Source: an uncultured Actinomycetes bacterium (GTDB lineage Bacteria; Actinomycetota; Thermoleophilia; Gaiellales; JAICJC01). From it: DNA of 64,000 nucleotides. A program made the position numbers and the translations under genes. Numbering within the stretch: the first letter of the stretch is position 1; every line of letters starts with the position of its first letter. The notes below the pieces were generated by a model, which made no database searches, was not told the DNA's origin, and saw nothing but the letters and a program-made list of their open reading frames with translations. This document shows, piece after piece, positions 6,295 to 64,000 of this stretch. The stretch is from positions 114,588 through 178,587 of the forward strand of contig CAWEYE010000005.1 of the NCBI GenBank assembly GCA_963813245.1. Direction: 5' to 3'.

Positions 6295-7208
6295 GGGTCG
6301 CATCCGCACCGGTGTCGTTCGGCATATTCGAGCTGACGGCAGGCGATTCAGGACTGCCCGACCCGGTGGCGGTGCTCGACGCCATGGCCGACACGGGCCA
6401 CGAGGGCACGGAGCTCGGCCCGCCCGGGTACTTCGGCGACGCCGCCGGCACGGCCGCCGCGCTCGCCGAGCGCAACCTCGCGCTCGTGGGGTCGTTCCTG
6501 CCCCTGCGGCTCTCGCGCAAGGAGCACATCGACGAGGACATGGCCTTCCTCGACCGGGCGCTCGGCATCCTCGACGAGACCACGCCGCCGGGGGACACGC
6601 GGCCGATGGCGCTGATCTCGGACGCGTTCTGCGAGCCCGAGCGCCTGGCCGGCGCCGGCCAGATCGAGGAGCGGCCCGACGCATGGCTCGGCGACGCCCG
6701 GTTCGAGCTCCTGGTCGCAAACGCGCAGAGGGCGGCCGAGCGCTGCCTCGCCCGCGGCTACCGGCCGGCCTTCCACTACCACGGCGGCACCTACGTCGAG
6801 ACGCCGCGCGAGATCGACCGCTTCGCCTCGCTCGTCGACGCGAGCGTGCTGGGCTTCTGCTTCGACAGCGGCCATTCGCTCTTCGGCGGCGGCGATCCGG
6901 TGGCGTTCCTCGACACCTACGGCGAGCTCGTCACCCACGTGCACCTGAAGGATGTCGACGGCGCGGTCATGGACGAGATCCGCTCGCGCGGGCTCGGGAT
7001 GGAGGAGGCGTGGCGGCGGGGCGTGTTCTGCCGGTTCGGCGAGGGCAGCGTCGACCTCGCAGCGATCGTCGCCCGGCTGCGCGCACTCGGCTACGACGAC
7101 TGGGTGGTGGTCGAGCAGGACCGGCACCTGAAGCCGGGCCAGACGATCGCGTCGCTCACCGACGATGCCCGCCACAACCGCGAGGTGCTGCGGGAGCTGG
7201 GGGTGTAG
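6291..7208 (+). CDS. Sugar phosphate isomerase/epimerase family protein (IolE/IolH-like TIM barrel)
   Basis: MRVASAPVSFGIFELT...GHEGTELGPPGYF...HLKDVDG...DDWVVVEQD. The ATG overlaps the iolB stop (ATGA). Confidence 0.78.
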   Translation: MRVASAPVSFGIFELTAGDSGLPDPVAVLDAMADTGHEGTELGPPGYFGDAAGTAAALAERNLALVGSFLPLRLSRKEHIDEDMAFLDRALGILDETTPPGDTRPMALISDAFCEPERLAGAGQIEERPDAWLGDARFELLVANAQRAAERCLARGYRPAFHYHGGTYVETPREIDRFASLVDASVLGFCFDSGHSLFGGGDPVAFLDTYGELVTHVHLKDVDGAVMDEIRSRGLGMEEAWRRGVFCRFGEGSVDLAAIVARLRALGYDDWVVVEQDRHLKPGQTIASLTDDARHNREVLRELGV

Positions 7209-7224
7209 GGGCAGAATCCGCGAG

Positions 7225-7801
7225 GTGTTCGCCCCCGCCTACCCGATCGAGACCGAGCGGCTGCTGCTGCGCCCCTACCAAAAGGGCGACTTCGACGCGC
7301 TCCACGCGATCGAGTCGCGGGCCGACGTCAACCGCTATCTGTACTCGGAAGCGCGCGGCGGCGACGAGGTGCACGGCATCCTGCGCCGGAAGCTGGATGA
7401 GACCGGCCTGCGCGATGAGGGGGACACGCTTTCGGTGGCATGCGTGCGCAGGGACACGGGCGGCGATGATCGGCGGCTGCATTCTGCACTGGGCCAGCCG
7501 CGAGCACGGTCTGGGCGAGATCGGTTTCGTGCTCCACCCCGACCACCACGGCCACGGCTACGCGACCGAGGCCGCCCGCCCGCTGCTCGAGTTCGGCTTC
7601 GCCACCGTCGGCTTGCACCGGATCATCGGCCGGCTCGAGGCCAGAAACGTGGCATCGGCGCGCGTGCTCGAGAAGCTCGGCATGCGCCGCGAGGCGCTGC
7701 TCATCGAGAACGAGTGGGTCAAGGGCGAGTGGCAGAGCGAGCTCGACTACGCGATCCTCGACCGCGAGTGGCGGGCGCTGCGCGCGGTCGGCGGCGCTTG
7801 A
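7225..7801 (+). pseudogene. GNAT (RimJ/RimL-type) N-acetyltransferase, broken by one apparent +1 insertion near 7462
   Basis: N-terminal part IETERLLLRPYQKGDFDALHAIESRADVNRYLY...SVACVRRDTG is in the frame of ORF 7165. The continuation AMIGGCILHWASREHGLGEIGFVLHPDHHGHGYATEAARPLLEFGF...ARNVASARVLEKLGM is in the frame of ORF 6683..7801. Confidence 0.75.
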
Positions 7802-7931
7802 CAGCCGCCGCTCCCATCCGCCGTGCTCGAGGTCGCCGTAAGCCCCAACTTACGGTGAGTCTAGACGGCGAAGGCTGGACGGCACTCTTCGAGCTCTTCC
7901 GCAGCGTCGTCGCCGGCCGCTGAGGTTGGTC

Positions 7932-9653
7932 TTAGGCAGCCTGGCGCTGGTCGCCGGAGAGGAGCCCGTTGAAGAGCATCGTCGGCAGCGGCTTGCTGTA
8001 GAGGTAGCCCTGGCCGATCTCGCAGCCGAGGTCGCGCAGGAAGGTCAGCTGCGCCTCGGTCTCGATGCCCTCGGCGAGGCACTGGATGCCGAGCTTCGCG
8101 GCCATCGTGATCATGGTCTCGACGAGCACCCCGGCGTCGCGGTCGTCGGGCAGGTCCTTCACGAACGAGCGGTCGATCTTGATCATGCTCGGCCGCAGGC
8201 GCCGCAGCCGCCCGAGCGAGGAGTAGCCGGTGCCGAAGTCGTCGATTGCCAGGCGCAGGCCCTGGGAGTGGATCTCGTTCAGCATCGGATCGAGATCCGT
8301 GATGTCGGTCATCGCGGCCTGCTCGGTGAGCTCGATCATGATCCGGTCGGGGGTGAGCCCGAACGATTCGACCGTCGCGATCACGCGGCGGATGGCGGAC
8401 GCCTGCCAGTACGCCGGCGGCAGGTTGACCGAGGCGTACAGGTCGAGGTCGCGGTCGCACCAGCGCCGCGCCTCGATGCAGGCTCGCTCGAGCACCCATG
8501 CCGTCATCGGGCGGATCAGGCCCGTGCGCTCGGCGGCCGGCAGGAACGCGCCGGGCAGGAGCAGGCCGGCCTCGGGATGGTTCCACCGGATCAGCGCCTC
8601 GGCACCCACGATGCACGACTGCGTGAGGTCTACGATCGGCTGGTAGTACAGCTCGAGCTCGTCCCGCCGCTCCGCCAGCCGCAGCTGAGATGCGATCGCG
8701 AGCTCCCTGCTCGAGTCGCGCTTCGGCGGCTGGTACAGGCGGTAGCCGTCGCGGCCGCCGTCCTTGGCCGCGTACATGGCGATGTCGGCGTGCTTGAGCA
8801 GCGTCTCGGCGGTGTCGCCGTCGGCCGGAAAGAGGCTGGCGCCGATGCTCGGGGTGACGTAGAGGTCGGTGTTCGCGACCGCGAACGGCTTTGCGAGCGC
8901 CGCCCGCAGGTTCGCGGCCACGGTCTGCGCGGCCGTCTCGGGGGACGCCTCGGCGGCCGCTCCCTGCACGAGCACCAGGAACTCGTCGCCGCCCTGGCGG
9001 GCGACCACGTCACCGGCCCGGCACGACTCGCGCAGCCGCTTTGCGACCATCACGAGCAGTTCGTCGCCGACGGCGTGACCGAAGCTGTCGTTCACCAGCT
9101 TGAAGTCGTCGAGGTCGATGAACAGCACCGCGCCGCCCGAGTGCGAGCGCGCGGCGTTGGCGATCGCGACGGTGAGGTGCTCCTGGAAGAGCGCCCGGTT
9201 GGGCAGGTCGGTGAGCGGGTCGTGCAGCGCCAGGTGGGCGAGCCGCTCCTCGCCCGACCGGCGCTCGGTCACGTCGAAGAGGACGCCGTCGACATGCAGC
9301 ACGACGCCGTCGAGCCCGTAGACGCCCTGACCGTGGCCCTGCACCCAGCGCGTGCTCCCGTCGGCGTGGACCAGGCGATACTCGATCGCGTACGCCTCGC
9401 GGCGGTCGAGCGCGCCGCGGAAGAGCGCCGTCACCGCATCGAGGTCGTCGGGGTGGATGATGCTCGAGTAGGGGCGGCCGGCCTCGCCCAGGAGGGCGGA
9501 GGGCGGATAGCCGGTGATGGACTCGATCGACGGCGCGACGGCGCGCATGATCCAGCGCTCGTCCAGGCGCTCGTGCCGGTACGGCGTCCCCGGCAGCACC
9601 GAGACCTGCGCACCGGAGCGTCCACTCCAGGGTATGCCCGCGCGACTTTGCAT
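7932..9653 (-). CDS. PAS-GGDEF-EAL c-di-GMP signalling protein
   Basis: PAS (SIESITGYPPSALLG...IEYRLVHADGSTRWV), GGDEF (RQGGDEFLVL) and EAL (EALIRW...DDFGTGYSSL...KIDRSF...EGIE) domains. Start taken at ATG 9653 (GGGGGGA upstream). Confidence 0.9.
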   Translation of the reverse strand: MQSRAGIPWSGRSGAQVSVLPGTPYRHERLDERWIMRAVAPSIESITGYPPSALLGEAGRPYSSIIHPDDLDAVTALFRGALDRREAYAIEYRLVHADGSTRWVQGHGQGVYGLDGVVLHVDGVLFDVTERRSGEERLAHLALHDPLTDLPNRALFQEHLTVAIANAARSHSGGAVLFIDLDDFKLVNDSFGHAVGDELLVMVAKRLRESCRAGDVVARQGGDEFLVLVQGAAAEASPETAAQTVAANLRAALAKPFAVANTDLYVTPSIGASLFPADGDTAETLLKHADIAMYAAKDGGRDGYRLYQPPKRDSSRELAIASQLRLAERRDELELYYQPIVDLTQSCIVGAEALIRWNHPEAGLLLPGAFLPAAERTGLIRPMTAWVLERACIEARRWCDRDLDLYASVNLPPAYWQASAIRRVIATVESFGLTPDRIMIELTEQAAMTDITDLDPMLNEIHSQGLRLAIDDFGTGYSSLGRLRRLRPSMIKIDRSFVKDLPDDRDAGVLVETMITMAAKLGIQCLAEGIETEAQLTFLRDLGCEIGQGYLYSKPLPTMLFNGLLSGDQRQAA

Positions 9654-9772
9654 ATCCCCCCGGGTAGTCGGGTCATTTTGGCAACAGTTGATCACCTGAT
9701 CGAGGGACGGGTGCGTACAGCAGCCGGCGACGGGGCACCGTGCCGCAGCTACCGCAGGCTGGGGAGGGACGG

Positions 9773-9788
9773 ATGCCGCATGCGGCAT
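9773..9788. repeat. 16-bp perfect palindrome ATGCCGCATGCGGCAT upstream of the membrane GGDEF-EAL gene
   Basis: Read directly from the sequence. It lies in the divergent intergenic region between two c-di-GMP genes. Its function is unknown (operator or 5' hairpin). Confidence 0.5.
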
Positions 9789-9882
9789 GTACTGCCGGCC
9801 CGGTGCGCCGACCGTAAGGGGGGTGGTGCAGTCACCCCCTCATTCCGCCGTGCACACGATCCCGGGCATCGTGCGGTTCGGC

Positions 9883-12060
9883 ATGGCGGCGATGGTCGCG
9901 GCGGTCGCAGGCCAGGCGCTGCTGGCGACCCTCGGCCTCGACACAGGCGCCGACATCGCCGGTGGCCTGGTCGTGCCCCTGCTGGCGGCTCTGATCGTCG
10001 CCGAGCGGGTGCGGCGGACACATTCCGAGCGCACCGCCTGGTCCGCGGTCGTCGTGGCCCTCGGTCTTCTGATCGCCGGCAACGTCTACTGCGTGCTTGC
10101 GTTCGCCGATCCCGCGAACCCGCCCGTGCCCTCGCCGGCCGATATCGCCTACCTGTCCGAGTACCCGCTGATGTTCATGGCGCTCGGGCTGCTCGTGCGT
10201 GACCGGGCCGTCGGCTTCCGGCCCAGCCTCTGGATCGACGGCGTCGTGGCGACGCTCAGCGTCGCCGGAGTGTGGACAGCGCTCGATCCGCCGCACGTCG
10301 CCCACGCCGGGTCGATGCTGGAGGCGCTCACCCTGCACGCCTACGTCGTCGGCGACGTCGTCCTCGCCGCCGCCGCCGTCGGCACCTTCGCCCTGTTCTC
10401 GTGGCGGCCGGGGCCGGCCTGGCTCGTGATCGCGGGCGGCCTGGTGGCGCAGTCGGCCGCCGATCTGCTCACCACCATGTCCTCGAGCGGGCACAGCGCC
10501 GCAGTGCTGCAGCTGATCGGTGTGCTGTGGAGCGTGGCCGTGGCAACGTTCATCATCGCGGCCTGGCTGCCGACCACCAAGCGCCCCCACCACACGATCG
10601 CCGGCTGGCGGGCGCAGGCGCCGACGGTCGCCTTCTCGACCGTCGCGCTGGGCACGCTCGTGGCCGGCGTCGCCGGAGACGTGCCGGTGCTCGCCCGCAC
10701 CCTTGCGACCGCCGCCGTCGCCGCCGCGATGCTGCGGCTCCTGTGGACGGCAAACGAGAACGTCGGCCTCGAGTTCGCCCGCAGGCTCGCGGTCACCGAC
10801 GATCTGACCGGCCTCGGCAACCGCCGCCAGCTGTGGACCTCGATCCGGGCGGCCTGCGCGCGCCGGGAGCGGTTCGCGTTGCTCATGATCGACCTGGACG
10901 GCTTCAAGGAGGTGAACGACGCGCTCGGCCACAATGCGGGCGACCTCCTGCTGCAGGGGATGGCCGACCGGTTCTCGCGCCTGGTCCGGCCCGACGACGT
11001 GCTCACCCGCCTGGGCGGCGACGAGTTCGGCGTGCTCGTGCGGGCCTGCGACGAGGCCGCCGCGGTGGCCTTCGCCGACCGGGTCGGCGAGGTGCTCGAG
11101 ACCGGCTTCGAGGTGCACGGCATCACGGTCCGCGTCGCGGCCAGCGCCGGCATCGTGATCGCCACCGGCGACGACACCGCGCCGGAGCTCCTGCGCCGGG
11201 CCGACGTCGCGATGTACGAGGCCAAGCGCAATCGCAGCCGCCGCGAGGTGTACGACCCCGAGACCGACCAGCGCTCACCCGCCCGTCTGGGGATGATGGA
11301 CCAGCTGCGCCGGGCGATCGAGTCGCGCACGCTCGCCGTGCACTACCAGCCGAAGGCGCATCTGCGCTCGGGCGAGGTGTACGGGCTCGAGGCGCTCGTC
11401 CGCTGGCGCATGCCCGATGGCGAGCTGCTGATGCCGGCGGAGTTCCTGCCCCTGGCCGACAACGCCGGGCTCATGTACGAGCTGACGCTGTGCGTCCTCG
11501 AGCGCGCCCTCGCCGACGTGGCCCGCCTGCGCGTGCGCCGGCCGCAGCTGACGGTCGCGGTGAACGTGCCGCCGGTGGCGATCCTCGACGCCAACCTGGC
11601 GCTCGACATCGCCCGCCTGCTGGCCGCCGCCGGCCTGCCCGGCCGGGCTCTCGAGATCGAGATCACCGAGGAGAGCCTCATGGCCGACCGCCTGCGCGCC
11701 CGGTCGCTGATCGCCGGCCTGCGCGAGCTCGGGGTGGCCATCTCGATCGACGACTACGGCACGGGCTACTCGTCGCTCCCGTACCTGCGCGACCTCGAGG
11801 TCGACTCGCTCAAGCTCGACCGCTCGTTCGTGACCGGCCTCGCCCACAGCGGCAAGGCGGGCACCATCGTCGCCTCCACGATCAAGCTCGCCCACGCGCT
11901 CGGCCTGTGGGTGGTGGCCGAAGGGGTCGAGTCGAGCGACGACTGGCTCGCGCTCGACGCGCTCGACTGCGACGCCGTCCAGGGCTTCCTGCTCTCACGC
12001 CCCGTCCCGATCGAGGTCATCGCCGGGTCGCTCGGGTCCGCCGACGCGCAGGCCGCGTGA
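9883..12060 (+). CDS. Membrane-anchored GGDEF-EAL c-di-GMP signalling protein
   Basis: About 9 predicted hydrophobic helices, then GGDEF (RLGGDEFGVL) and EAL (EALVRW...DDYGTGYSSL...KLDRSF...EGVE). Start taken at ATG 9883 (MAAMVAAVAG). Confidence 0.9.
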   Translation: MAAMVAAVAGQALLATLGLDTGADIAGGLVVPLLAALIVAERVRRTHSERTAWSAVVVALGLLIAGNVYCVLAFADPANPPVPSPADIAYLSEYPLMFMALGLLVRDRAVGFRPSLWIDGVVATLSVAGVWTALDPPHVAHAGSMLEALTLHAYVVGDVVLAAAAVGTFALFSWRPGPAWLVIAGGLVAQSAADLLTTMSSSGHSAAVLQLIGVLWSVAVATFIIAAWLPTTKRPHHTIAGWRAQAPTVAFSTVALGTLVAGVAGDVPVLARTLATAAVAAAMLRLLWTANENVGLEFARRLAVTDDLTGLGNRRQLWTSIRAACARRERFALLMIDLDGFKEVNDALGHNAGDLLLQGMADRFSRLVRPDDVLTRLGGDEFGVLVRACDEAAAVAFADRVGEVLETGFEVHGITVRVAASAGIVIATGDDTAPELLRRADVAMYEAKRNRSRREVYDPETDQRSPARLGMMDQLRRAIESRTLAVHYQPKAHLRSGEVYGLEALVRWRMPDGELLMPAEFLPLADNAGLMYELTLCVLERALADVARLRVRRPQLTVAVNVPPVAILDANLALDIARLLAAAGLPGRALEIEITEESLMADRLRARSLIAGLRELGVAISIDDYGTGYSSLPYLRDLEVDSLKLDRSFVTGLAHSGKAGTIVASTIKLAHALGLWVVAEGVESSDDWLALDALDCDAVQGFLLSRPVPIEVIAGSLGSADAQAA

Positions 12061-55006: not shown

Positions 55007-55091
55007 CCGGTGGACGGCGTGAGGCTGCGCGCCGAGATCGAGGCGGCTGGGAGCTCGACCGCGGCTACATCGAGCGGTACCGGCTCGACCG

Positions 55092-56213
55092 CTAGCGGTA
55101 GCGCAGCCGCTCGACCAGCTCGTCGTTCAGCCGGATGCCGAGCCCCGGGCCGGCGGGAACGGCCACGCGGCCCTCGCCGTCGAGCGCGAACGGCTCGGTC
55201 AGCAGGCCGTTCACGAGCGGCGAGTCGGCGACCGAGAACTCCGAGTACGTGGCGCCCGCGATCGCCGCGGTGAAGTGCAGCGACGCGGCGACCAGGATCC
55301 CCGTCGAGAAGCAGTGCGGCACCACCTCGGTGCCGGTGGCCGCGGCCATCTCGGCGATCTGGCGGCCCACGGTGAACCCGCCGCAGCGGGCCAGGTCGGG
55401 CTGGAGCACGTCGACGTGGCCGAGCTCGACGAGCGCCCGGTAGGCGCGCAGGCCGGAGTCGGCCTCGCCGGCGGCGATCCGCACGGCCACCGCGTCGGAG
55501 AGCCGCCGATAGCCGTCGTAGTCGTCGGCCAGAAGCGGCTCCTCGAGCCAGTGGATCCCGAACGGCTCGAGCTCGCGCACGAGCTGGATCGCGCGCTTGA
55601 CCGAGTAGGCCATGCCACCGTCGATCATGAGCGCGCGCTTCGGCCCGAGCTCCTCGCGGGCCGCCGCCACGAGCTCGACGTCACGCTCGAGGCTCGCCCC
55701 CAGCGGCCCCCAGCCCAGCTTGAGCGCCCGGTAGCCGGCCGCGACCGCGCGGCGGGCGATGGCGCGCACCTCCTCGGGCGACTCCGGCATCACCTCGCTC
55801 GCGTACACCGGCATGGCCTCGGCGCGGCGCCCGCCGAGCAGCGCCGACACCGGCACGCCCGCCGCCTGCCCGGCGATGTCCCAGAGGGCGATGTCGATCG
55901 CGCTCATCGCGTGCAGGGCGGCGCCCGCCCGGCCGTAGTGGTAGGAGCCCCAGTACATGCGATCCCAGAGCTCGCCGACGCGGGCCGGATCCTGGCCGAT
56001 CAGGAGCTCCCCGAGGCCGCGGGCGACGGCGTGCGACGACGGCATCTCGACGATCGTGCGGGCGATATAGGGGGACGTGTCGGCCTCGCCGATCCCGACC
56101 AGACCCTCATCGGTGTGCACGCGCACGACGAAGGCGTCCTGCGTGCCGTCGGCGCGGGTCGTGTCGACCTGGTCGAGGCGCAGGATGATCGGTTCGATCG
56201 CGGTGATCTGCAT
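55092..56213 (-). CDS. Mandelate racemase/muconate lactonizing enzyme family (enolase superfamily)
   Basis: MQITAIEPIILRL...GIGEADTSP...KLGWGPLG...MIDGGMAY...WLEEPL...AAGEAD. Start taken at ATG 56213. Confidence 0.88.
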   Translation of the reverse strand: MQITAIEPIILRLDQVDTTRADGTQDAFVVRVHTDEGLVGIGEADTSPYIARTIVEMPSSHAVARGLGELLIGQDPARVGELWDRMYWGSYHYGRAGAALHAMSAIDIALWDIAGQAAGVPVSALLGGRRAEAMPVYASEVMPESPEEVRAIARRAVAAGYRALKLGWGPLGASLERDVELVAAAREELGPKRALMIDGGMAYSVKRAIQLVRELEPFGIHWLEEPLLADDYDGYRRLSDAVAVRIAAGEADSGLRAYRALVELGHVDVLQPDLARCGGFTVGRQIAEMAAATGTEVVPHCFSTGILVAASLHFTAAIAGATYSEFSVADSPLVNGLLTEPFALDGEGRVAVPAGPGLGIRLNDELVERLRYR

Positions 56214-56259
56214 GAGCGCGGGCGCCCGCCCGAGCGGGCCGTGCGATGATACCGACCTC

Positions 56260-57219
56260 GTGAAGGCACTCATGTGGCACGGGGGCGCCGACCTCCGCTA
56301 CGGCGACGAGCCGGCCCCCGAGGCCGGCCCCGGTGCCGTCCCGTTCCGGGTGACACTCGCCGGGGTGTGCGGATCCGACCTGCATCCGTACCGCGGCCAT
56401 CACGGGCCGCGCACGCCGCCGCTCGTGCTCGGGCACGAGGCGATCGGCCGGGTCGACGGCGACGAGCACCGCTATGTCGTGTTCCCAATCGTGTCGTGCG
56501 GCGCGTGCCCGGCGTGCCTGCGCGGCGAGGAGAACCTGTGCGCGACGCGCGGCCTGCTCGGGCTCGACCGGCAGGGCGTGTTCGCCGAGACGGTGGCCGT
56601 CGACCCGCGCTCGCTGACACAGGTCCCCGCGGCCGTCGACGACCGCGTGGCCGTGCTCACCGAGCCGTTCGCCTGCGCGGTCTCCGCGCTGCGCTACGCC
56701 GGCGCCGCCCCGGGGCAGCACGTCCTCGTCGTGGGCGGCGGCCCGATCGGGCTCCTCACCACCTACGCCTGCGCGATCCAGGGGATCGAGGTCTCGGCCG
56801 TCGAGCCGGTCGCGAGCCGGCGCGCGCTCGCCGCCGAGCTCGGGGCGACCCGAGTGGCGGCGGCGGTCTCCGACGCGAGCCTGCCCGTGGCCGACATCGC
56901 CATCGACGCCGTCGGGATCGAGGCCACGTGGCAGGGCGCGATCGGCAAGGTGCGCACGGGCGGCTCGGTGACGGTCATCGGCCTCGGCCAGGCCGAGGGC
57001 GCGGTGGCCGTCGGCGACATGGTGCGGCGGGCGATCACGCTGCGCGGCCACTACGCCTACACACGGGCCGACTTCGACGCCGCCCTTGCCCTGCTGGCCG
57101 AGCATCCGCCCGGCCTGGACTGGGTGACGGTGATGCCGCTGCGCGACGGGGCCGAGGCCTTCCGCCGGCTCGTCGAGGAGCCGGCGGGGACGGTCAAGGC
57201 GCTGCTCGCGACGCCCTAG
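56260..57219 (+). CDS. Zinc-dependent alcohol dehydrogenase (MDR family)
   Basis: GVCGSDLH, GHEAIG, CGACPACLRGEENLC and VVGGGPIGLL. GTG 56260 lies inside track ORF 56077..57219. Confidence 0.9.
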   Translation: MKALMWHGGADLRYGDEPAPEAGPGAVPFRVTLAGVCGSDLHPYRGHHGPRTPPLVLGHEAIGRVDGDEHRYVVFPIVSCGACPACLRGEENLCATRGLLGLDRQGVFAETVAVDPRSLTQVPAAVDDRVAVLTEPFACAVSALRYAGAAPGQHVLVVGGGPIGLLTTYACAIQGIEVSAVEPVASRRALAAELGATRVAAAVSDASLPVADIAIDAVGIEATWQGAIGKVRTGGSVTVIGLGQAEGAVAVGDMVRRAITLRGHYAYTRADFDAALALLAEHPPGLDWVTVMPLRDGAEAFRRLVEEPAGTVKALLATP

Positions 57220-57854
57220 ATCAGGCCCTCGCGGACGGCCTGGGCAACCGCCTGTGAGCGCGTCTTGGCGTGGAGCTTGGTCGTGACGTCGTGCATCACG
57301 GCCTTGATCGTCCGCTCGCTGTAGCTCAGCCGCTCGGCCACCTCGCGGGTCGGCAGGCCGTCGGCGACGAGCCGCAGCACGTTGCGCTCGCGCGTCGTGA
57401 GCGCGGTCAGCGACAGGCCGCGCGGCTCGAGCACGTCGCGCGACACCACCGCCAGCGTGCGCAGCAGGCTGCCGAGCACGTCGGGCGGCAGGACGCCGGC
57501 GCCGGAGTGGACGGCGCGGACGCCGGCGGCCAGCGTCTCGGGCGTGAGCGTGTCCTTCGTCAGGTAGCCGCACGCGCCGGCCTGGACGGTGTCGAGCAGC
57601 CCGGGCTCGTCGAACGCCGCGGCGCAGATCAGCACCCGCGGCCGCCCGGCCGGGCGCAGCCGGCGCACGAACTCGCAGCTGCCCTCGACGTCGCCGTCGA
57701 GCACGACCACGTCCGCGCTCGCAAGGTTGGGATCGAGCTCCGCCGAGCGCGGCCCCTCGGCCTCCCACACCTCGTCGATCTCCGCAAGCGCGGCGAGGCT
57801 GGCCACGAGGCCTCGGCGGTAGATCGGATGTGGATCGATGATGTAGACCCGCAC
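57216..57854 (-). CDS. LuxR/NarL-family response regulator
   Basis: VRVYIIDPHPIYRRGL receiver domain plus C-terminal LTTRERNVLRLVADGLPTREVAERLSYSERTIKAVM HTH. GTG 57854. The longer track ORF extension is an artefact. Confidence 0.85.
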   Translation of the reverse strand: MRVYIIDPHPIYRRGLVASLAALAEIDEVWEAEGPRSAELDPNLASADVVVLDGDVEGSCEFVRRLRPAGRPRVLICAAAFDEPGLLDTVQAGACGYLTKDTLTPETLAAGVRAVHSGAGVLPPDVLGSLLRTLAVVSRDVLEPRGLSLTALTTRERNVLRLVADGLPTREVAERLSYSERTIKAVMHDVTTKLHAKTRSQAVAQAVREGLI

Positions 57855-57939
57855 GGCACCCCCACCGCACCGTTTGCTCAGTCGAGCCGCACGCGAGATA
57901 GTACGAAAGTCCAAGCGCCTTTGCAGACCCGGGGGACCC

Positions 57940-58278
57940 ATGCCCAACGTAGTGACCACGAACGACACCATCATGTGCATCCACGGCGGGACGGTCGTCC
58001 TCACGCCGAAGCAGACCGTCGTCATGGCCCAGGGCGGCGCCGTCCTGCGCGAGACCGACCTGATCGGCGCGCCCATCGTCGGCTGCGCCCAGCCGCCGAG
58101 CATCGCCAGCAAGCCCTGCACCACCGTGATCTCGACCCTCCCCGGCGGGAGCGCGCCCACGGTCCTGGTCGGTGGGCTGCCGGCGCACATCTCGACGCTC
58201 TCGGGCATCACCGACGGCGTCCCGCCGGGCACGATCATGGTGGCCGCGCCGGGCGCTCCGCTCGTCCAGGCGTCGTGA
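57940..58278 (+). CDS. Small Cys-containing protein, PAAR-like/DUF4280-like (tentative)
   Basis: MPNVVTTNDTIMCIHGGTVVLTP...IGAPIVGCAQPPSIASKPCTTV...VLVGGLPAHI...GTIMVAAPG. The pattern of short beta-strands with conserved C/G resembles DUF4280. GGGGGA precedes the ATG. Confidence 0.4.
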   Translation: MPNVVTTNDTIMCIHGGTVVLTPKQTVVMAQGGAVLRETDLIGAPIVGCAQPPSIASKPCTTVISTLPGGSAPTVLVGGLPAHISTLSGITDGVPPGTIMVAAPGAPLVQAS

Positions 58279-58299
58279 CCGCTACCCCGGGGAGACACG

Positions 58300-60522
58300 G
58301 TGGCTGATCAGCCCCGCCAGGTCGGCAGGTTCCAGATCGTCCGCGAGATCGGCCGCGGCGGCATGGCCGCGGTGTACCTGGCCCGCCAGACCGACCTCGA
58401 CCGCGACGTCGCGCTGAAGGAGCTGAACGCGTTCCACGCCGCCGATCCCGCCTTCGCCGAGCGGTTCGTGCGCGAGTCGCGGGTCGCGGGCTCGATGCAG
58501 CACCCGAACATCGTGACGGTGTACGAGTTCCTGAACGAGAACGGGACGCCCTACATCGCGATGGAGTACCTCGAGCGCGGCTCGCTGCGCCCGTACGTGG
58601 GCCGGACGACGCTGGCGCAGACGATCGGCGTGCTCGAGGGCGCCCTGGCCGGCCTGGCCCAGGCGGAGCGGCGCGAGATCGTGCACCGCGACATCAAGCC
58701 CGAGAACCTGATGGTGACCTCCGACGGCGAGGTGAAGATCGCCGACTTCGGCATCGCGAAGGCGCTGACCGACGCGGGCGGGCCGAACCTCACGGCCACG
58801 GGCACCACGGTCGGCACGCCGGCCTACATGGCACCGGAGCAGGCCACGGCGGGCGACGTGGGGCCGTGGACCGATCTGTACTCGGTCGGGATCACCGCCT
58901 ACGAGATGACCGTCGACCGGGTGCCGTTCCACGACTCGACGACGCCGGTGGCCGTGCTCATGCGCCAGGTGAGCGAGGAGATCCCCTCGGCCGTGTCGGT
59001 CAACCCGAGCGTCGACCGGCGCTTCTCGGACTGGATCGACCGGCTGCTCGTCAAGGACCCGGCCAAGCGCACCCAGAGCGCCCGCCAGGCCTGGTACGAG
59101 CTCGAGGAGATCGCCGTCGCCGCCCTCGGGCCGCTGTGGCGGCGCGAGGCCCGCCTGCTCGTGTCGGGCACCGACCGGGCGGCCGGCCCGCTGACGCCGG
59201 CGCCGTTTGACCGCGCGACGCCGCCCGCCCAGGAGGCGAGCGCAGGCTACGAGACCTACCTGGGCGAGTCGCCCGCGGCGGCCCCACCGCCGCCGCCCCC
59301 GCCACCGCCGCCCGTGCAGCCGCCCGCCACGCTCGAGGGCCAGCCGCTCCAGCCCGTCCCGGCCGCCGCCGGGGGGCAGGCGACGGTCGCCCCGGCCGCC
59401 GCGGCCGCCGCAGCCGCGGCGGGCACCCCCGGTGCGGGCGAGACCTTCCAGTGGCCGGCCGCCGGCGGCGGCCGCAGCCGGATGCTGATCGTGGTCGCGG
59501 TCGTCCTGATCGCCGCGATCGCCGCGGGCGCCTTCTTCTGGAGCAAGTCAGGCGGATCCGGGTCGGCTGCGAAGACCACGACGACCACGAAGCACCACAC
59601 GCAGACGACCCACCCGCCGGCCCTGCCGACTGTGGCCGCGGTGCCCGCGCAGTTCCAGGCGGGCAAGCTCCAGAGCGTGGCGCCGTTCGCCGGTCACGCG
59701 TGGGCGCTCGACCACAAGAAGCCGCGCCGGATCGTCGACCTGCAGGGGGCAACCACGGGGTCGATCCCCGCCGGCAAGGGCGCCGCGAATCTGGCGAGCG
59801 GCGAGGGCGCGCTGTGGGTGAGCGCCCAGACTCCGACCGGCGGCGAGGTGCGCCGGTTCGTGCCGGGGTCGACCGCGCCGCCGTCGGCGCCGATCCCCTA
59901 CCCCGGCCACCCCGCGCCCGCGCGCGTGGTCGTGAGCGCGGGCACGATCTGGCAGCCGACGAACCAGGGCCTGCTCAAGATCTCCGAGCAGGGCGGCGCG
60001 CCGGTGGCGGTGAAGGGGATCAACTTCACGCCGGCCTCGCTCGAGCTCGAGGCCGGGTTCATCTGGGCGACGGACGGCAAGGGCAAGCTCGCCCAGGTGC
60101 CCGTGACGACCCCGCAGCCCGTGGCGACCATCGTCCCGCTCCCCGGCGCGGGCTGGATCACGGGCGACAGCAAAGCGGTGTACGTCGTCAGCTCGACCGG
60201 CGTCATGAAGGTGGATCCGGCCGCTCCGACGACGCAGACGCCCGTGAGCGGCATCACGACGCCGCCGGTGCGGATCGCGGTCGTGGGCGACTTCCTGTGG
60301 ACGGCCACGTACGGGCCGCCGGCGGCGGGCGTGCGCATCGGCACGCTCGAGGGCTACGACCTCGTCCACCCCGGCAAGCAGACGGTGCCGTTCGCCTTCA
60401 AGACCGAGGCGAAGGGCGCGTACGTGACCAAGCTGGTCGCGATCAACAATGCGTTCTGGCTGACCGCGCTCGGACCCGACGGCAAGTCGGTCGGCCTCGA
60501 GCCGTTCACCATCACGGGCTGA
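58300..60522 (+). CDS. Transmembrane Ser/Thr protein kinase with Pro/Ala-rich linker and large extracellular domain
   Basis: GRGGMAAVYLA...ALK, HRDIKPENL, DFGIA and GTPAYMAPE. One TM helix (MLIVVAVVLIAAIAAGAFFW), then ~300 aa of extracellular beta-rich sequence. Confidence 0.93.
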   Translation: MADQPRQVGRFQIVREIGRGGMAAVYLARQTDLDRDVALKELNAFHAADPAFAERFVRESRVAGSMQHPNIVTVYEFLNENGTPYIAMEYLERGSLRPYVGRTTLAQTIGVLEGALAGLAQAERREIVHRDIKPENLMVTSDGEVKIADFGIAKALTDAGGPNLTATGTTVGTPAYMAPEQATAGDVGPWTDLYSVGITAYEMTVDRVPFHDSTTPVAVLMRQVSEEIPSAVSVNPSVDRRFSDWIDRLLVKDPAKRTQSARQAWYELEEIAVAALGPLWRREARLLVSGTDRAAGPLTPAPFDRATPPAQEASAGYETYLGESPAAAPPPPPPPPPPVQPPATLEGQPLQPVPAAAGGQATVAPAAAAAAAAAGTPGAGETFQWPAAGGGRSRMLIVVAVVLIAAIAAGAFFWSKSGGSGSAAKTTTTTKHHTQTTHPPALPTVAAVPAQFQAGKLQSVAPFAGHAWALDHKKPRRIVDLQGATTGSIPAGKGAANLASGEGALWVSAQTPTGGEVRRFVPGSTAPPSAPIPYPGHPAPARVVVSAGTIWQPTNQGLLKISEQGGAPVAVKGINFTPASLELEAGFIWATDGKGKLAQVPVTTPQPVATIVPLPGAGWITGDSKAVYVVSSTGVMKVDPAAPTTQTPVSGITTPPVRIAVVGDFLWTATYGPPAAGVRIGTLEGYDLVHPGKQTVPFAFKTEAKGAYVTKLVAINNAFWLTALGPDGKSVGLEPFTITG

Positions 60523-61276
60523 GCGCCTGGTAGAAACGGGTCACCTCGGCCGCTTCATCAAACCCCAGACGGCGATAGATCCGCCGACCCGCGGCGCTTG
60601 CGTCGAGGCCGGCCTGCGCGGCTCCCGCAGCCCGGGCGGCGTGCAGCGCCGCGGATGTCATCGCCAGGCCGACGCCGCGCCGGCGCCAGCCCGGATCGGT
60701 GTTGACGAACATGACGCGAGCGTACGCACCGAACGCGCCCCAGCCCGATGTCCCCCGCACCACCCCGCCGGCATCGACGGCGGCCATCAGCCGAAACGCC
60801 GGCGGCAATGATCTCAGGTACCCTGCGAACACCTCCGGCGCGTCCTCGATGCCCGGATCGGCCCGCATCGCCGCCGCAACCGCGTCGGCCAACGCCACAC
60901 CTTCAGGCGCGTCGCCGGCGAGGCGTCGCACCGGCCACAGCGCGAGCGCGTCGGGCAGCCGAGCGCCGGGCACCGTACCCAGGTCCTGGCACGTCATCGC
61001 CGTCGCCTCGCCGTTCCGCCACGCCAACCCGCCGACGAGCAGCTCGCGGCATCGCGCCGCCGCAGCGAACACGGTGATGCTGCCCGCGGCGAGGTCGGGG
61101 AGGATCGCTCCGAGCGCACCGTGGGCGCGATCGTCCGTCACCAGCAGCCGGGCGAACGGGTCATCGCTCGAGGGGAGCAGCCCATGCAGGCCCGGCGTCT
61201 CGACCTGCGGCCGCTCGTTCCGCCGCAACGGATCGCACCGTGCCAGGAACGACCCGACGTAGACGTCGACCGCCAA
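60512..61276 (-). CDS. GNAT family N-acetyltransferase
   Basis: C-terminal VMFVNTDPGWRRRGVGLAMTSAAL...RIYRRLGF (acetyl-CoA motif A). TTG start. Its 3' end overlaps the kinase 3' end by 11 nt. Confidence 0.65.
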   Translation of the reverse strand: MAVDVYVGSFLARCDPLRRNERPQVETPGLHGLLPSSDDPFARLLVTDDRAHGALGAILPDLAAGSITVFAAAARCRELLVGGLAWRNGEATAMTCQDLGTVPGARLPDALALWPVRRLAGDAPEGVALADAVAAAMRADPGIEDAPEVFAGYLRSLPPAFRLMAAVDAGGVVRGTSGWGAFGAYARVMFVNTDPGWRRRGVGLAMTSAALHAARAAGAAQAGLDASAAGRRIYRRLGFDEAAEVTRFYQALSP

Positions 61277-61282
61277 CCGGGG

Positions 61283-62800
61283 TCAGCGCAGGAGCTGGCG
61301 GGCGGCGTCGAGCTGGAGCTGGTAGCGGCCCCGGTACTGGGCGGCCGGGCGCTCGATGTCGGCGATCCAGTCGCCGTAGTGGTTGGGATCGTGGCCGAAT
61401 CCGGCGACGCCCTCGCGCAGCCGCGTCGCCTTGAGCGTCTGGGCCTCGTCGATGAACCAGCGCAGCTGCAGGCGCGGGTCCTTGGGGAAGCCCGCGTACT
61501 TGCCGTGATCCCAGATCGACGTGCGCATCTGGAAGAACCCGAGCGAGTCGCGGTCGCCGTAGTTGTCGTTCTTGAGCCCCGACTCGACGAGGGCGGCCAT
61601 CACCGGCAGCTCGCGCGGCAGGCCGGCCCGCTGGGCGGCGTCGCCCATCCAGGCCGCGATCGCGCTGCGGGGGGCGTGATCGCCCGGGTAGGCGCCGATG
61701 ATCGCGTCGAGCGCCCCGGCGCCGGCGCCGTGTGCGGCGTCGATTGCGGGAGGCACGGCGGCGATGCTGCCGATGGTCGAGTGCACGCCCGCCGAGTTGG
61801 GGGCAAGGGCCGGCGCCGGCGGGGCGGGCGAGCCGGCAACGGCGCTCATGCCGAGCGTCCCGGAGGCGGGTGCAGGCGCGGGCGCCGGGGTGCCGGCCGC
61901 CGCCACCGCCGGCATGCCGACCCCCGCGGGCGCGTCGGGCACCACCCGGCGCGCGCCCATGAAGTACGGCTTGAAGACGTCGACCGACTCGTACTCGACG
62001 TGCCCGCCCGTGTGCGGGGCGGCGATGACCTGGCCGTGGCCGGCGTAGATGACGACGTGGGTGGCGCCTGCGCCCGGGCCCTCGAAGTTCGAGAAGATCA
62101 GATCGCCGGGCTTGAACTGGCCCCACGCGACGGCGTGGCCCTCCTTGACCTGGTCCCAGGTCGTGCGGTCGAGGTTCACGCCGATCTGCTTGTAGCAGTA
62201 CTGCACGAGCCCGGAGCAGTCGAACCCGCCGGGGCTCGAGCCGCCCCAGACGTACGGCGTGCCGATGTACTTGGAGGCGATGTGGACGACGTGCTGGCCG
62301 GCGTCGAGCTGGGTGTGGTCGACGGCCGCGGCCGCCTCGGCCATGACGCCGGGGCCGGTGCCGACCGCGGGCAGCGCGGCCGCCGGCGCGGGCGCCCCTG
62401 CCCCGACCAGGCCCTCGGCCGCGTGCGCGCCCGCGGCATGGCCGGCCGGGGCGTGCTGGCCGGCCTTGTCGACCGCCTGACGCGCGATCTCGGCGACGTC
62501 GCCGCCCAGGTGCGTGCGCATGTGCTCGGCGAACTGGTACACGGCCGCGCCCTCGGCCGCCGCGGCCATCAGCAGGCCGGCGAGGCTCGACTTCGACTCG
62601 CGGATCTCGAGCGTCTGCGCCGCAGCCCCCGCTCCCGAGAACTCGGCCGCAGCCTCGTCGAGGCCGGCCGCGAGGCAGGCGCCCGAGGGGTCGCGCCGGA
62701 AGGTGCGGCGGAAGTCCGGGTCGCTCAGGAGCCGCTGCAGCACCTCGACCGCGCGGGCGTTCTGGTCGCCGCTGGGAGTGGGCCGGGCCGCCTCAGACAC
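61283..62800 (-). CDS. Bifunctional-looking peptidoglycan hydrolase: NlpC/P60 endopeptidase + SLT-like transglycosylase domain, with a leader-peptide-like N-terminus and no Sec signal
   Basis: NlpC/P60: YIGTPYVWGGSSPGGFDCSGLVQYCY...THVVIYAGHG. C-terminus: ALVESGLKNDNYGDRDSLGFFQMR (E-S...S-x-G-x-x-Q). N-terminus: VEVLQRLLSDPDFRRTFRRDPSGACLAAGL. Confidence 0.82.
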   Translation of the reverse strand: MSEAARPTPSGDQNARAVEVLQRLLSDPDFRRTFRRDPSGACLAAGLDEAAAEFSGAGAAAQTLEIRESKSSLAGLLMAAAAEGAAVYQFAEHMRTHLGGDVAEIARQAVDKAGQHAPAGHAAGAHAAEGLVGAGAPAPAAALPAVGTGPGVMAEAAAAVDHTQLDAGQHVVHIASKYIGTPYVWGGSSPGGFDCSGLVQYCYKQIGVNLDRTTWDQVKEGHAVAWGQFKPGDLIFSNFEGPGAGATHVVIYAGHGQVIAAPHTGGHVEYESVDVFKPYFMGARRVVPDAPAGVGMPAVAAAGTPAPAPAPASGTLGMSAVAGSPAPPAPALAPNSAGVHSTIGSIAAVPPAIDAAHGAGAGALDAIIGAYPGDHAPRSAIAAWMGDAAQRAGLPRELPVMAALVESGLKNDNYGDRDSLGFFQMRTSIWDHGKYAGFPKDPRLQLRWFIDEAQTLKATRLREGVAGFGHDPNHYGDWIADIERPAAQYRGRYQLQLDAARQLLR

Positions 62801-62809
62801 GACCGCAGC

Positions 62810-64000
62810 CTAGCGGTCGCGCCGCATCATGAGCGGCTTGCCGACCGAGATCACGATGGGAAGGAAGAGCATGGCGTAGAAGATCCCGAACAGTGCCCAT
62901 ACGACCGCTCGATTGCCCGCCAGCGCGACCAGCACGTGGTAGTAGCGGGTCGAGACAAGTATGGCAAAGCAGGCGCAGCCCAGCAACCAGCCGAGGGCGG
63001 CGACGGCATAGAGATCGGCCGACCGCGAGAGGCCGGGAGGCACCGGCCGCCCCGCCAGGCGCAGCTGCAGCCGCTGCCGCGACCGCGCCCGCAGGCCGGG
63101 CTGGCGCAGCAGGTCGACCAGGATGTGATAGCCGTCGCGGTCGAGGAGCGGGTTCAGGTTGAAGAGCCCGCCGATGTAGGCGCCGAGCGCGATCTGGAAC
63201 GCGATGTCGGCGCCGGTGCCGTGCCCGAGCGTCGTCACGATCGCCGCCGCGCCCGCGACGATCAGGTCGGTGGCCGGGCCGGCGGCGCTCACGGCGATGC
63301 GGCGGCGGCGGGGCTCGAACCACGCATCCGAGGTGTCGACGAACCCGAACGGGAAGATCAGGATCAGCTTCACCCCGGCCCGGCGGACGCGGCGGCCGAA
63401 CGAGGCGACGGCGAGCCCGTGCCCGATCTCGTGCAGCGAGACGGCCGCAAGCCGGCCGGCGAGGAACACGGCCGCGCCCCAGCCGAGGTGGTCGGCGACG
63501 ACGAACGGCGTCACGTGCTGGAAGAGCGCGAGGCGCAGGAACGCCACGAAGCCGACGGCCGCGATCGTGCCGAGCACGGCGAGCCCCGGCGCCGAGAAGA
63601 ACAGCCAGCCGCCGTAGCGGTAGACGGCCTGGAAGACGGCGTCGGGGTTCTGAAACGCCCACTCGCGCGGCTTGAACATGCGCTCGAGCAGGCCGGGATC
63701 GTGCTCGAAGGGGTCGTAGGCGTCGCCGGTCTGCTCGAGCAGGCCGTGCTCGCCGAGGTCGGCCAGGAGCCGCGCGAGCCGGGGCGGCCCGGCGGCGCCC
63801 TGGTCGCGCTCGCTCGCGGCCAGCAGATCCTCGAGCGAGGCGCCGGCGGCCAGCACCTGCACCAGGGACGCCTCGGCATCGCCCATGCGCAGGTACTTGG
63901 CCCCGTCCTCGTCGCGCAGCACCCAGCGCTGGTCGCCCTCGTCCTCCTCGAGCTGCTTGAGCGCGCACCCCGGCCGCAGCCGCGGCCGCGACGAGACGTG
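62810..64000 (-). CDS. M50-family membrane zinc metalloprotease with N-terminal PqqD/RRE-like domain (5' end outside the window)
   Basis: HEIGH zinc motif in a TM helix, multiple TM segments and NLNPLLDRDGYH. The frame stays open upstream of the track start to position 64000 (...RPRLRPGCALKQLEEDEGDQRWVLRDEDGAKYLRMGDAEASLVQVLAAGASLEDLL). Confidence 0.78.
   Translation of the reverse strand, partial: HVSSRPRLRPGCALKQLEEDEGDQRWVLRDEDGAKYLRMGDAEASLVQVLAAGASLEDLLAASERDQGAAGPPRLARLLADLGEHGLLEQTGDAYDPFEHDPGLLERMFKPREWAFQNPDAVFQAVYRYGGWLFFSAPGLAVLGTIAAVGFVAFLRLALFQHVTPFVVADHLGWGAAVFLAGRLAAVSLHEIGHGLAVASFGRRVRRAGVKLILIFPFGFVDTSDAWFEPRRRRIAVSAAGPATDLIVAGAAAIVTTLGHGTGADIAFQIALGAYIGGLFNLNPLLDRDGYHILVDLLRQPGLRARSRQRLQLRLAGRPVPPGLSRSADLYAVAALGWLLGCACFAILVSTRYYHVLVALAGNRAVVWALFGIFYAMLFLPIVISVGKPLMMRRDR

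Follow-up and report, generated by a model that had tools for sequence, protein, structure and literature searches.

An FHA-RRE-M50 membrane protease gene paired with genes for peptidoglycan hydrolases that bear a leader-like N-terminal domain: a putative leader-guided processing module of Thermoleophilia

Introduction

SpoIVFB, an M50 enzyme with a cytoplasmic regulatory domain, removes the pro-sequence from a substrate that does not span the membrane, pro-sigma-K, at the membrane face. Among peptides that are ribosomally synthesized and modified post-translationally (RiPPs), the M50 proteases EpeP and TglG/TmoG are established leader or scaffold peptidases (PMC10885120). The daptide (NF041824) and epipeptide (YydH/EpeP/LiaK) proteases consist of a PqqD-like RiPP recognition element (RRE) followed by a multi-pass M50 part with HExxH and NxxPxxxxDG motifs, and are encoded beside a gene whose product begins with a leader-like sequence. 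RREs and NHLP leaders are thought of as devices for the maturation of small peptides. Here we analyze a stretch of 64,000 nucleotides (hereafter the window) from an uncultured Actinomycetes bacterium of the class Thermoleophilia (contig CAWEYE010000005.1), at the end of which two neighboring genes encode an RRE-containing M50 membrane protease and a 505-residue peptidoglycan hydrolase with a leader-like N-terminal domain; in this family such devices are apparently applied to wall hydrolases of 500-2000 residues.

NHLP/Nif11 leaders (TIGR03793, TIGR04509, NF038399, PF14407) share a helical motif, xxLLxRLLxDPxFRxxFxxDPxxAxxxAGL, and NHLP leaders are structured, protein-like domains (PMC12537861). 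Behind the conserved leader the C-terminal part is hypervariable, and NHLP precursors are defined by a Gly-Gly at the end of conservation and by export through a peptidase-containing ATP-binding transporter (PCAT) and HlyD (PMC2887384). Two contractile machines of Gram-positive bacteria are also relevant to the locus. In diffocin, the hub-hydrolase CD1368 has both a lytic transglycosylase and an NlpC/P60 domain, which together act as 'scissors' for the thick Gram-positive peptidoglycan (PMC10996793). The contractile injection systems (CIS) of Streptomyces are cytoplasmic, mediate cell death and depend on CisA, a bitopic membrane adaptor (PMC10066040, PMC10020575, PMC12237407). We found no published account of the protease-hydrolase module described here in the literature.

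Results

An initial annotation, made from the letters of the window and its open reading frames (ORFs), had placed the protease gene directly upstream of the hydrolase gene on the minus strand, and the ORF list and translations bear this out (Table 1). The protease frame ends with a TAG stop at 62810-62812 and the hydrolase starts with a GTG codon at 62800; the hydrolase gene is thus as close downstream as described, with a spacer of 9 nt and not ten, a spacing that points to an operon, probably with coupled translation. In the other direction the protease frame stays open to the window end at 64000, with no in-frame stop, and by alignment to orthologues its start sits past that position. The full-length orthologues have 519-546 residues (two are 96% and one is 71% identical to the window fragment), and their approximately 150 extra N-terminal residues comprise a zinc ribbon and an FHA domain, so that the corresponding 5' ~450 nt of the window gene are expected past position 64000.

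Seen from either gene, the pair is conserved. In a protease-anchored genome scan, which gave 80 loci, an ORF with the N-terminal domain of the hydrolase (hereafter the N-domain, or tag) directly follows the protease gene in 70 of the 76 loci with downstream DNA (E 1e-27 to 1e-40), and the M50 and N-domain matches to hidden Markov models (HMMs), measured from the end of the one to the start of the other, are a median 68 nt apart across loci. In the reverse look-up, all four hydrolases, chosen regardless of the protease, directly follow an FHA-M50 gene, the two genes overlapping or standing 0-4 nt apart. The pairing goes far beyond chance. The 80 loci come only from Thermoleophilia or from unclassified Actinomycetes/Actinomycetota metagenome-assembled genomes (MAGs), the orders and families including Gaiellales, Solirubrobacterales, Miltoncostaeaceae and Thermoleophilaceae; judged from these homologues, the pair forms the heart of an actinobacterial module that is conserved in the class Thermoleophilia and has a few relatives elsewhere. 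Bins not labelled Thermoleophilia also hold divergent N-domain hydrolases (P0081, P0073, P0114), one example being a protein of a Nocardioides sp. MAG. Carriers that can be cultured include Solirubrobacter soli DSM 22325 (L070), S. phytolaccae and S. deserti. The 64-kb window holds no second copy of the N-domain.

When 1.84 billion representative proteins were searched exhaustively with a profile, only 434 carried the N-domain; with few exceptions it stands at their extreme N-terminus, and their lengths run from 82 to 1445 residues. The N-domain is an 85-residue module common to the homologues, with an NHLP/Nif11-clan helical bundle at residues 17-55. When 40 members were scored singly (threshold E<0.01), TIGR04509 (NHLP-related RiPP peptide) matched 39 of them, with a best E of 4e-11, and NF038399 (NHLP clan) matched 38, with a best E of 1e-11; PF14407 matched 33, IniB_NTERM 31, the canonical NHLP model TIGR03793 seven and NHase_alpha five. 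The window copy matches PF14407 at E 1e-4, and gave no match to TIGR03793 at E<=0.01. By these profiles, the N-domain is a divergent member of the NHLP clan.

The tag carries a second motif, RES(K/R)SSLAG...AAAxEG, which is specific to the N-domain family. In the logo of 267 unique N-domains the conserved stretch begins with A-[ML]-x-T(98%)-L(97%)-[ED](99%)-[LIVM](85%)-R(100%)-E(95%), goes on with S(100%)-[RK](95%)-S(100%)-S(97%)-L-A-G(100%)-V-x-M-A-A-A-x-E(99%)-G(98%), and shows no Gly-Gly pattern at the end of conservation, which closes with ...AAAxEG. In an AlphaFold2 (AF2) model of the hydrolase, the helices at residues 9-55 have a predicted local distance difference test score (pLDDT) of about 80, residues 57-70 fall below 50, and a further helix spans residues 73-97; this last helix is weakly hydrophobic, not transmembrane (TM)-like, and has an invariant Glu in its middle. 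The invariant T-L-E-x-R-E-S-K-S stretch is accordingly modelled as disordered, which is typical of a motif that becomes ordered on a partner, and we propose the invariant motif as the region of recognition and cleavage. FHA domains typically bind pThr-x-x-[ILV]. The sequence Thr63-Leu-Glu-Ile lies at 62603-62614, the +3 residue being L/I/V/M in 85% of the 267 sequences, and Thr63, in the segment predicted to be disordered, is a candidate phospho-switch or FHA ligand. It is also apparent that the tag is more conserved than the protease parts (mean pairwise distance 0.39 against 0.42-0.45); as the most conserved part of otherwise shuffled hydrolases, it has the profile that would fit a recognition module.

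The protease belongs to the M50 family by PF02163 (E 1.6e-8; 34.6 bits against a cut-off of 27.2 for the window protein). Its HExxH (HEIGH) and NxxPxxxxDG (NLNPLLDRDG) motifs are invariant among 16 diverse family members, so that the enzyme reads as catalytically intact, and the closest solved structures by sequence are MjS2P (3B4R, E 1.2e-4) and then SpoIVFB (8VJL, E 0.012). Among the NCBIfam models, daptide_HExxH (NF041824) matches at E 1.4e-39 over model positions 9-365 of 379, with 136 bits, which is under the equivalog cut-off of 300, and the YydH/LiaK epipeptide protease model also matches; the oxidoreductase, aminotransferase and methyltransferase genes of the daptide set were not seen in the inspected loci. 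The FHA domain (PF00498, E 2e-14 to 5e-16) is present in all full-length orthologues examined, the window fragment ending before that region, and among the matches listed in precomputed Pfam annotation it appears in nearly all of 120 homologues. In an orthologue it matches FhaB/FipA (E 1.6e-14) and the VI_FHA model of TagH (E 5e-8).

Between the FHA domain and the membrane part lies the stretch that the initial annotation had described as an RRE-like N-terminus of the M50 protein. The RRE-like pattern stands, while the terminal position does not: since the orthologues are about 150 residues longer, this is an internal domain. Pfam PqqD matches 14 of 18 diverse family members, with a best E of 4.9e-5, and a sequence profile of the stretch run against the PDB gave noise plus TfuB1 at E 0.38. 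We modelled window residues 1-104 with AF2 from an 18-sequence alignment. The model has a mean pLDDT of 87, with strands at 13-16, 26-29 and 36-39 followed by helices, and its top seven PDB matches in Foldseek are TfuB1, TbiB1 and PqqD (E 8.5e-4 to 4e-2; target TM-score 0.64-0.75). TfuB1 and TbiB1 are RREs of lasso-peptide systems in leader-bound form. The best match is TfuB1 (6jx3_B, E 8.5e-4, 26% identity), the others include TbiB1 (5v1u/5v1v) and PqqD (5sxy), and SuiB, TigE and TglHI rank lower. On the predicted structure, the assignment of an RRE fold to the internal domain is sound; profile and fold searches together thus recover the RRE, in the case of Pfam PqqD from the family members rather than from the window copy.

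The proteins behind the tag are polymorphic, of approximately 500-2000 residues (400-1900 after the tag), and the domains detectable in them are all peptidoglycan hydrolases: NlpC/P60, CHAP, M23, amidase, lysozyme-like and an M15-like motif. For the window hydrolase, P0001 (95% identical) was taken as the database stand-in, an exact-sequence look-up having given no match. The window hydrolase consists of the N-domain, a linker, an NlpC/P60 domain, a second linker and a lysozyme-like domain, a layout shared by orthologues at 95% to 68% identity. The match to NlpC/P60 (PF00877, E 7.4e-25) is complete, covering positions 1-105 of 105, Cys195, His248 and His263 of the catalytic site are invariant across family members, and the domain is active-looking. 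A Foldseek search with the full hydrolase was dominated by NlpC/P60 matches, so that the N-domain and C-terminal folds are not assignable from it; it returned the autolysins Acd24020 and SagA (root-mean-square deviation 1.2-1.7 Å to autolysins) and, at rank 3, the diffocin hub-hydrolase (8v3w_H), which is 37% identical to the window NlpC/P60 domain. The C-terminal domain is all-helical in the AF2 model (pLDDT 85-95), has invariant E406-S407 and G415-D416...G421-x-F-Q-M, and recurs in many family members at varying positions. The SLT label of the initial annotation was not retained for this domain, since Pfam SLT gave no match for the window copy at E<=0.1, nor for 14 members at E<=10 beyond noise. 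Instead, a 14-member profile weakly matches C-type lysozymes (E 0.007; pattern E-S...D-x-S-x-G-F-F-Q-M), and 'lysozyme-like superfamily' is the defensible label.

By inspection, the hydrolase has no hydrophobic N-terminus that could serve as an export signal, in agreement with the initial annotation. Its most hydrophobic 19-mer has a summed Hessa free energy of +5.7 kcal/mol (family mean +6.2), compared with -1.3 to +0.3 kcal/mol for the TM-like segments of the protease. With neither a TM segment nor a signal peptide, the putative substrate would be cytoplasmic, as are the RRE and FHA domains. The intramembrane cleavage of a membrane-spanning substrate that had been suggested is unlikely, since the putative substrate helix is not TM-like; by analogy with SpoIVFB and pro-sigma-K, a cytoplasmic pro-protein that is cut at the membrane face would fit better. 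A reading of the A-rich helix as a TM or signal-anchor-release (SAR) anchor was rejected on hydrophobicity.

Where upstream DNA of at least 7 kb was available (71 loci), genes of a CIS lie directly upstream of the protease gene in 63. In the lineage of the window, the pair stands last in such a cluster. The CIS genes come in canonical order: a T4 gp19-like tube, a CIS_tube/LysM protein, a VgrG-like GPD/base_V spike, gp25, a Baseplate_J-like and a Tail_P2_I-like protein, the sheath and other genes further upstream lying outside the fetched flanks. When the 68 loci with both flanks were sorted, 60 had CIS and tag, none had CIS only, three had the tag only and five had neither. The window is collinear, with 91-93% identity over 55044-60528 and 61285-64000, with L005, L002, L003 and L006, and among such close collinear relatives (91-93% DNA identity) L001 and L005 carry CIS genes directly upstream; just past position 64000 we therefore expect the FHA region, a gene with PASTA repeats and the CIS baseplate genes. 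Four loci (L060, L082, L083, L092) have the tag, the protease and a Ser/Thr kinase with no CIS genes within 6-10 kb. As the pair persists there, the tag goes with the protease and not with the CIS, and the trio may predate the link to the injection system. In L092, the kinase gene is directly upstream of the protease gene.

The kinase consists of a kinase domain, a Pro-rich linker, a TM segment and an extracellular domain, and its gene is convergent to the pair in the window. A homologue is found within 10 kb in 55 of the 80 loci, including the four without CIS, and is usually convergent; the phospho-signal that the FHA domain reads is likely to come from this kinase. In L001 (11531-13137), on the 1.95-Mb MAG contig that is closest to the window, the kinase gene downstream of the hydrolase gene was called as a 344-aa product plus fragments, against approximately 735 aa in L002 and L003, which is probably a frameshift or an assembly error.

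Several other genes were noted around the pair. In CIS loci the gene upstream of the protease (L001 7280-8341; L004 5872-8352; L089 1502-4360) encodes 350-950 residues with matches to PASTA repeats and a PD40/Tricorn-like beta-propeller; the L004 protein has an N-terminal zinc ribbon like that of the protease. It is possible, by analogy, that this protein is a wall-sensing membrane adaptor in the role that CisA has in Streptomyces. In the window, the ORF of a GNAT acetyltransferase stands exactly between the stops of the hydrolase and kinase genes and is absent in L005, L002, L003 and L006, where both genes abut, so that by alignment it is a lineage-specific insertion. The 134-aa ORF beside the kinase contains Gly, Pro and Cys and is PAAR/DUF4280-like by eye only, with no Pfam match at E<=0.1. 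Two loci, L075 (~6300-11670) and L076 (~6300-11690), have FHA-RRE-M50 paralogues with no downstream N-domain gene; their neighbors encode a divergent Ser/Thr kinase, WXG100-like small proteins, a WXG/LXG-like protein of 450-476 aa and an EccC-like ATPase of ~1400 aa. This looks like a type VII secretion locus, and suggests a general role of the protease family as an accessory to secretion machines. A true RiPP system was ruled out, since the core peptide, tailoring enzymes (cyclodehydratase, LanM, radical SAM) and a C39-ATP-binding cassette (ABC)/HlyD exporter are absent in the inspected loci.

Table 1. Features at and near the end of the window (positions in the 64,000-nt stretch)
Feature	Position	Strand	Basis or detail
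Whole region, two co-directional genes	61283-64000	-	~73% G+C
Zinc-ribbon-FHA-RRE-M50 membrane metalloprotease gene, 3' 1191 nt	62810-64000	-	translation and orthologue alignment; 396 codons + stop
PqqD-like RRE domain of the protease	63731-63988	-	residues ~5-90 of the visible fragment; AF2, Foldseek, family Pfam matches
M50 (site-2-protease type) membrane catalytic domain	62813-63598	-	PF02163; HEIGH 63419-63433; NLNPLLDRDG 63131-63160
Intergenic spacer, protease stop to hydrolase start	62801-62809	-	9 nt; sequence
Peptidoglycan hydrolase gene, 505 aa	61283-62800	-	ORF list; orthologues; AF2 model
Leader-like N-domain (aa 15-97) of the hydrolase	62510-62758	-	NCBIfam/Pfam NHLP-clan matches
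Invariant linear motif T63-L-E-I-R-E-S-K-S-S-L-A-G-L-L-M-A-A-A-A-E-G84	62549-62614	-	logo of 267 N-domains
NlpC/P60 DL-endopeptidase domain (aa 180-285)	61946-62263	-	Pfam E 7.4e-25; Cys195 at 62216-62218
C-terminal lysozyme-like domain (aa 366-505), putative muramidase/lytic transglycosylase	61286-61705	-	motifs, weak profile match, AF2
GNAT acetyltransferase, 254 aa	60512-61276	-	PF13508, PF00583; insertion spans 60529-61284
Ser/Thr protein kinase, 740 aa	58300-60522	+	Pfam Pkinase E 6e-48
Conserved ORF beside the kinase, 134 aa	57874-58278	+	homologues ('h112') in 26/84 loci
LuxR-type response regulator	57216-57872	-	conserved in 42/84 loci

Discussion

Taking into consideration: (i) the RRE fold of the protease, the affinity of its M50 part to RiPP proteases and the NHLP affinity of the tag, (ii) a motif that is invariant yet predicted to be disordered, and (iii) a two-way coupled pairing that persists without CIS; we hypothesize that the hydrolase undergoes leader-guided processing by the RRE-M50 protease, a reading that we hold to be about evenly balanced between right and wrong. 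The course of events that we infer, from binding to the fate of the hydrolase, would begin with its synthesis in the cytoplasm as a pro-protein whose N-domain acts like a RiPP leader. The cytoplasmic PqqD-type RRE of the protease would read this tag, and the protease would cut in or near the invariant motif at the cytoplasmic membrane face, much as SpoIVFB does on pro-sigma-K, freeing the catalytic part with its NlpC/P60 endopeptidase and lysozyme-like glycosidase. Since an FHA domain is fused to the protease and the kinase is a conserved neighbor, processing is probably gated by Thr phosphorylation; a possible target is Thr63, invariant in the tag, because T-x-x-[LIVM] is a classic FHA ligand. 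In the lineage of the window, the matured hydrolase would most likely serve as wall-cutting 'scissors' for the CIS, either as cargo or as a baseplate-associated enzyme analogous to the diffocin hub-hydrolase, so that the thick Gram-positive peptidoglycan of a target cell, or of the producer itself, could be breached. In any specific downstream role of this kind our confidence is considerably lower than in the processing itself. Leader-guided processing had been proposed in the initial annotation, which did not have the FHA domain, the kinase and the CIS; the proposal is partly supported, namely in its recognition parts and in the pairing, and three of the checks named there as able to refute it were run and did not do so.

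A number of points weigh against leader-guided processing. The window copy of the tag scores below the curated cut-offs (NF038399: E 1e-7, 32 bits against 40; TIGR04509: E 5e-7, 29.7 bits against 34), so that the NHLP/Nif11-like leader of the initial annotation holds for the family and falls short of those cut-offs for this copy, and the RRE stretch of the window itself has no match to Pfam PqqD (PF05402) at E<=10. The domains that bind classical NHLP leaders are those of LanM, halogenases or PCAT, and PqqD-type RREs are not among them (PMC12537861); pairing an RRE with an NHLP leader, as proposed here, would therefore be new and without experimental precedent. In a mirror-tree comparison the N-domain tracks the FHA, RRE and TM parts alike (r 0.83-0.84), with no RRE-specific co-evolution, a non-discriminating result that we did not use as evidence. 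As to the role in injection, there is no CIS gene inside the 64-kb window, which ends within the protease gene, and no immunity gene is evident. The main gap is the route by which a cytoplasmic hydrolase of 500-2000 residues would reach the peptidoglycan after cleavage.

By analogy with contractile systems, delivery of the hydrolase into the producer's own wall via the CIS is conceivable, and would explain both the missing signal peptide and the missing immunity gene. In such a scheme the neighboring kinase would phosphorylate Thr63 in the disordered T-L-E-[LIVM]-R-E-S motif, and the protease would read the tag twice, with its FHA domain on pThr-x-x-[LIVM] and its RRE on the leader. After a cut at the invariant SSLAG, the freed 'scissors' would be passed to the cytoplasmic CIS, which would drive them through the producer's membrane into its wall, leading to regulated autolysis or particle release. 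With all these steps taken jointly, we regard the scheme as improbable; if true, wall hydrolases in Gram-positive Actinobacteria would have a route of export that needs no signal peptide.

Other explanations give the tag or the protease a different part. The N-domain could be a signal by which the hydrolase is loaded onto or attached to the baseplate, spike or tube of the CIS, and the FHA-RRE-M50 protein an anchor or regulator that does not cleave. CIS effectors are usually encoded at the 3' end of the cluster and have N-terminal signals, and all 60 CIS-linked loci with both flanks carry an N-domain hydrolase. There is an equivalent hydrolase in the diffocin baseplate (PMC10996793), and the Streptomyces CIS requires the membrane adaptor CisA (PMC12237407). 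We nevertheless consider this explanation unlikely, because the N-domain/M50/kinase trio occurs without CIS in the four loci named above, all catalytic residues of the protease are kept, the N-domain resembles RiPP leaders while its partner has a leader-binding fold, and proteins of up to ~2000 residues are unlikely as tube cargo. The near-obligate, two-way coupled pairing and the match of RRE to leader would also be left unexplained if the two genes were only co-regulated. In that account the kinase, FHA domain and M50 enzyme would form a regulated-intramembrane-proteolysis pathway acting on another substrate, such as an anti-sigma factor or a PASTA protein, while the N-domain would be auto-inhibitory or membrane-tethering, handled otherwise or kept, and the hydrolase would be an endolysin-like autolysin for particle release or programmed death. 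Site-2 proteases (S2P) classically cleave anti-sigma factors; the inspected loci hold no conserved anti-sigma/sigma pair. The account gains from the FHA-M50 paralogues without an N-domain gene, for example those beside type VII secretion genes in L075 and L076, from the lack of an evident immunity gene, and from actinobacterial CIS being cytoplasmic and tied to cell death (PMC10066040, PMC10020575). On balance, we think it quite unlikely.

It would solve the export problem if the hydrolase were a type II membrane protein (N-in, C-out) with a signal-anchor like that of SAR endolysins, freed by true intramembrane cleavage by the M50 enzyme, and this is also the classical topology of S2P substrates. 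SAR domains are A/G/S-rich helices with flanking Arg/Lys, as is the N-domain helix. Such an anchor is at odds, however, with the +5.7 kcal/mol of the best 19-mer (family mean +6.2) when the TM helices of the protease lie between -1.3 and +0.3, and with the invariant Glu in the middle of the helix; Sec export of multi-domain C-termini in proteins of 2000 residues from so weak an anchor is also unlikely, and we hold this topology to be very improbable. The lowest credence, close to none, goes to a genuine RiPP system in which a small product of the N-domain protein is the relevant molecule. The NHLP-clan matches, the RRE, the similarity to RiPP-type M50 proteases and the name 'putative modified peptide', given to one homologue by JGI, would suit it, while no inspected locus has tailoring enzymes, a PCAT or an ABC exporter, what comes after the tag is a set of large hydrolase domains with intact catalytic sites and not a short hypervariable core, and the Gly-Gly at the end of conservation, as defined in PMC2887384, is missing.

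If leader-guided processing of the hydrolase is confirmed, this kind of processing would extend from natural-product biosynthesis to the control of full-size enzymes. The pair would also be the first accessory or regulatory module for the uncharacterized CIS of Thermoleophilia, which are abundant soil Actinobacteria, and would bear on how contractile machines cope with thick Gram-positive walls and on the way in which cytoplasmic CIS of actinobacteria bring about cell death. In addition, the tag of 85 residues with its motif is a candidate for a portable handle through which engineered proteins could be activated under protease control or loaded into a CIS.

The module resembles several known systems in part. 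Like the diffocin hub-hydrolase, the window hydrolase joins an NlpC/P60 and a glycan-cleaving domain and is encoded, in its lineage, with a contractile tail-like cluster; in diffocin, however, the enzyme is fused to a gp27-like hub and has no leader or protease, whereas here it is separate, tagged and polymorphic, its physical association with the CIS being putative. In the control of contractile secretion by Thr phosphorylation (type VI secretion system PpkA-Fha1/TagH) and in mycobacterial PknB-FhaA/FhaB, a membrane Ser/Thr kinase and an FHA protein are likewise encoded with a contractile apparatus or cell-wall enzymes, but here the FHA domain is fused to a protease. As in NHLP/Nif11 precursors, a conserved helical leader precedes a variable C-terminal part, with the difference that the window family has no Gly-Gly, PCAT or HlyD and that its 'core' consists of folded hydrolase domains.

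Proteobacterial PqqD-M50-HlyD fusions belong to the same RRE-M50 subfamily (daptide_HExxH, E ~1e-45) and are paired with giant LEPR-XLL or LamG proteins, the former with a short conserved N-terminal motif, LEPRxLLxAD (NF012209). At the level of database sequences, this pairing is a precedent for RRE-M50 proteases acting on full-size proteins. It differs from the window system in its tag, in the fusion to a periplasmic adaptor and in the presence of TolC, which suggests type-I-like export, and it has no FHA domain, kinase or CIS. We observed such 715-aa fusions on proteobacterial megaplasmids, those of Pseudosulfitobacter (L085, NZ_CP085155.1) and Methylosinus (L086, NZ_AP022333.1), where they adjoin adaptor, TolC and prepilin-peptidase-like genes and where the giant LEPRxLLxAD genes beside them measure 38.7 kb and 26.5 kb. 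These loci appear to be an uncharacterized leader-guided processing and export system for giant proteins; we found no paper on the PqqD-M50-HlyD/LEPR-XLL system in the literature, and an Azospirillum M50-HlyD locus, which has no NHLP neighbors, was uninformative.

Compared with SpoIVFB, the window protease has FHA and RRE domains in place of the CBS domain and is paired with a wall hydrolase in place of a sigma factor, and the leader/RRE logic is absent in SpoIVFB. The daptide and epipeptide proteases share with it the order of RRE and M50 parts and the neighboring gene for a product with a leader-like start; the window system adds a zinc ribbon and an FHA domain, has no tailoring genes, scores 136 bits where the daptide model asks for 300, stands in the context of a kinase and a CIS, and has as its putative substrate an enzyme of 500-2000 residues and not a short peptide. 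The module is therefore not a RiPP system, and belongs with the RRE-M50 leader-peptidase systems as a variant of them.

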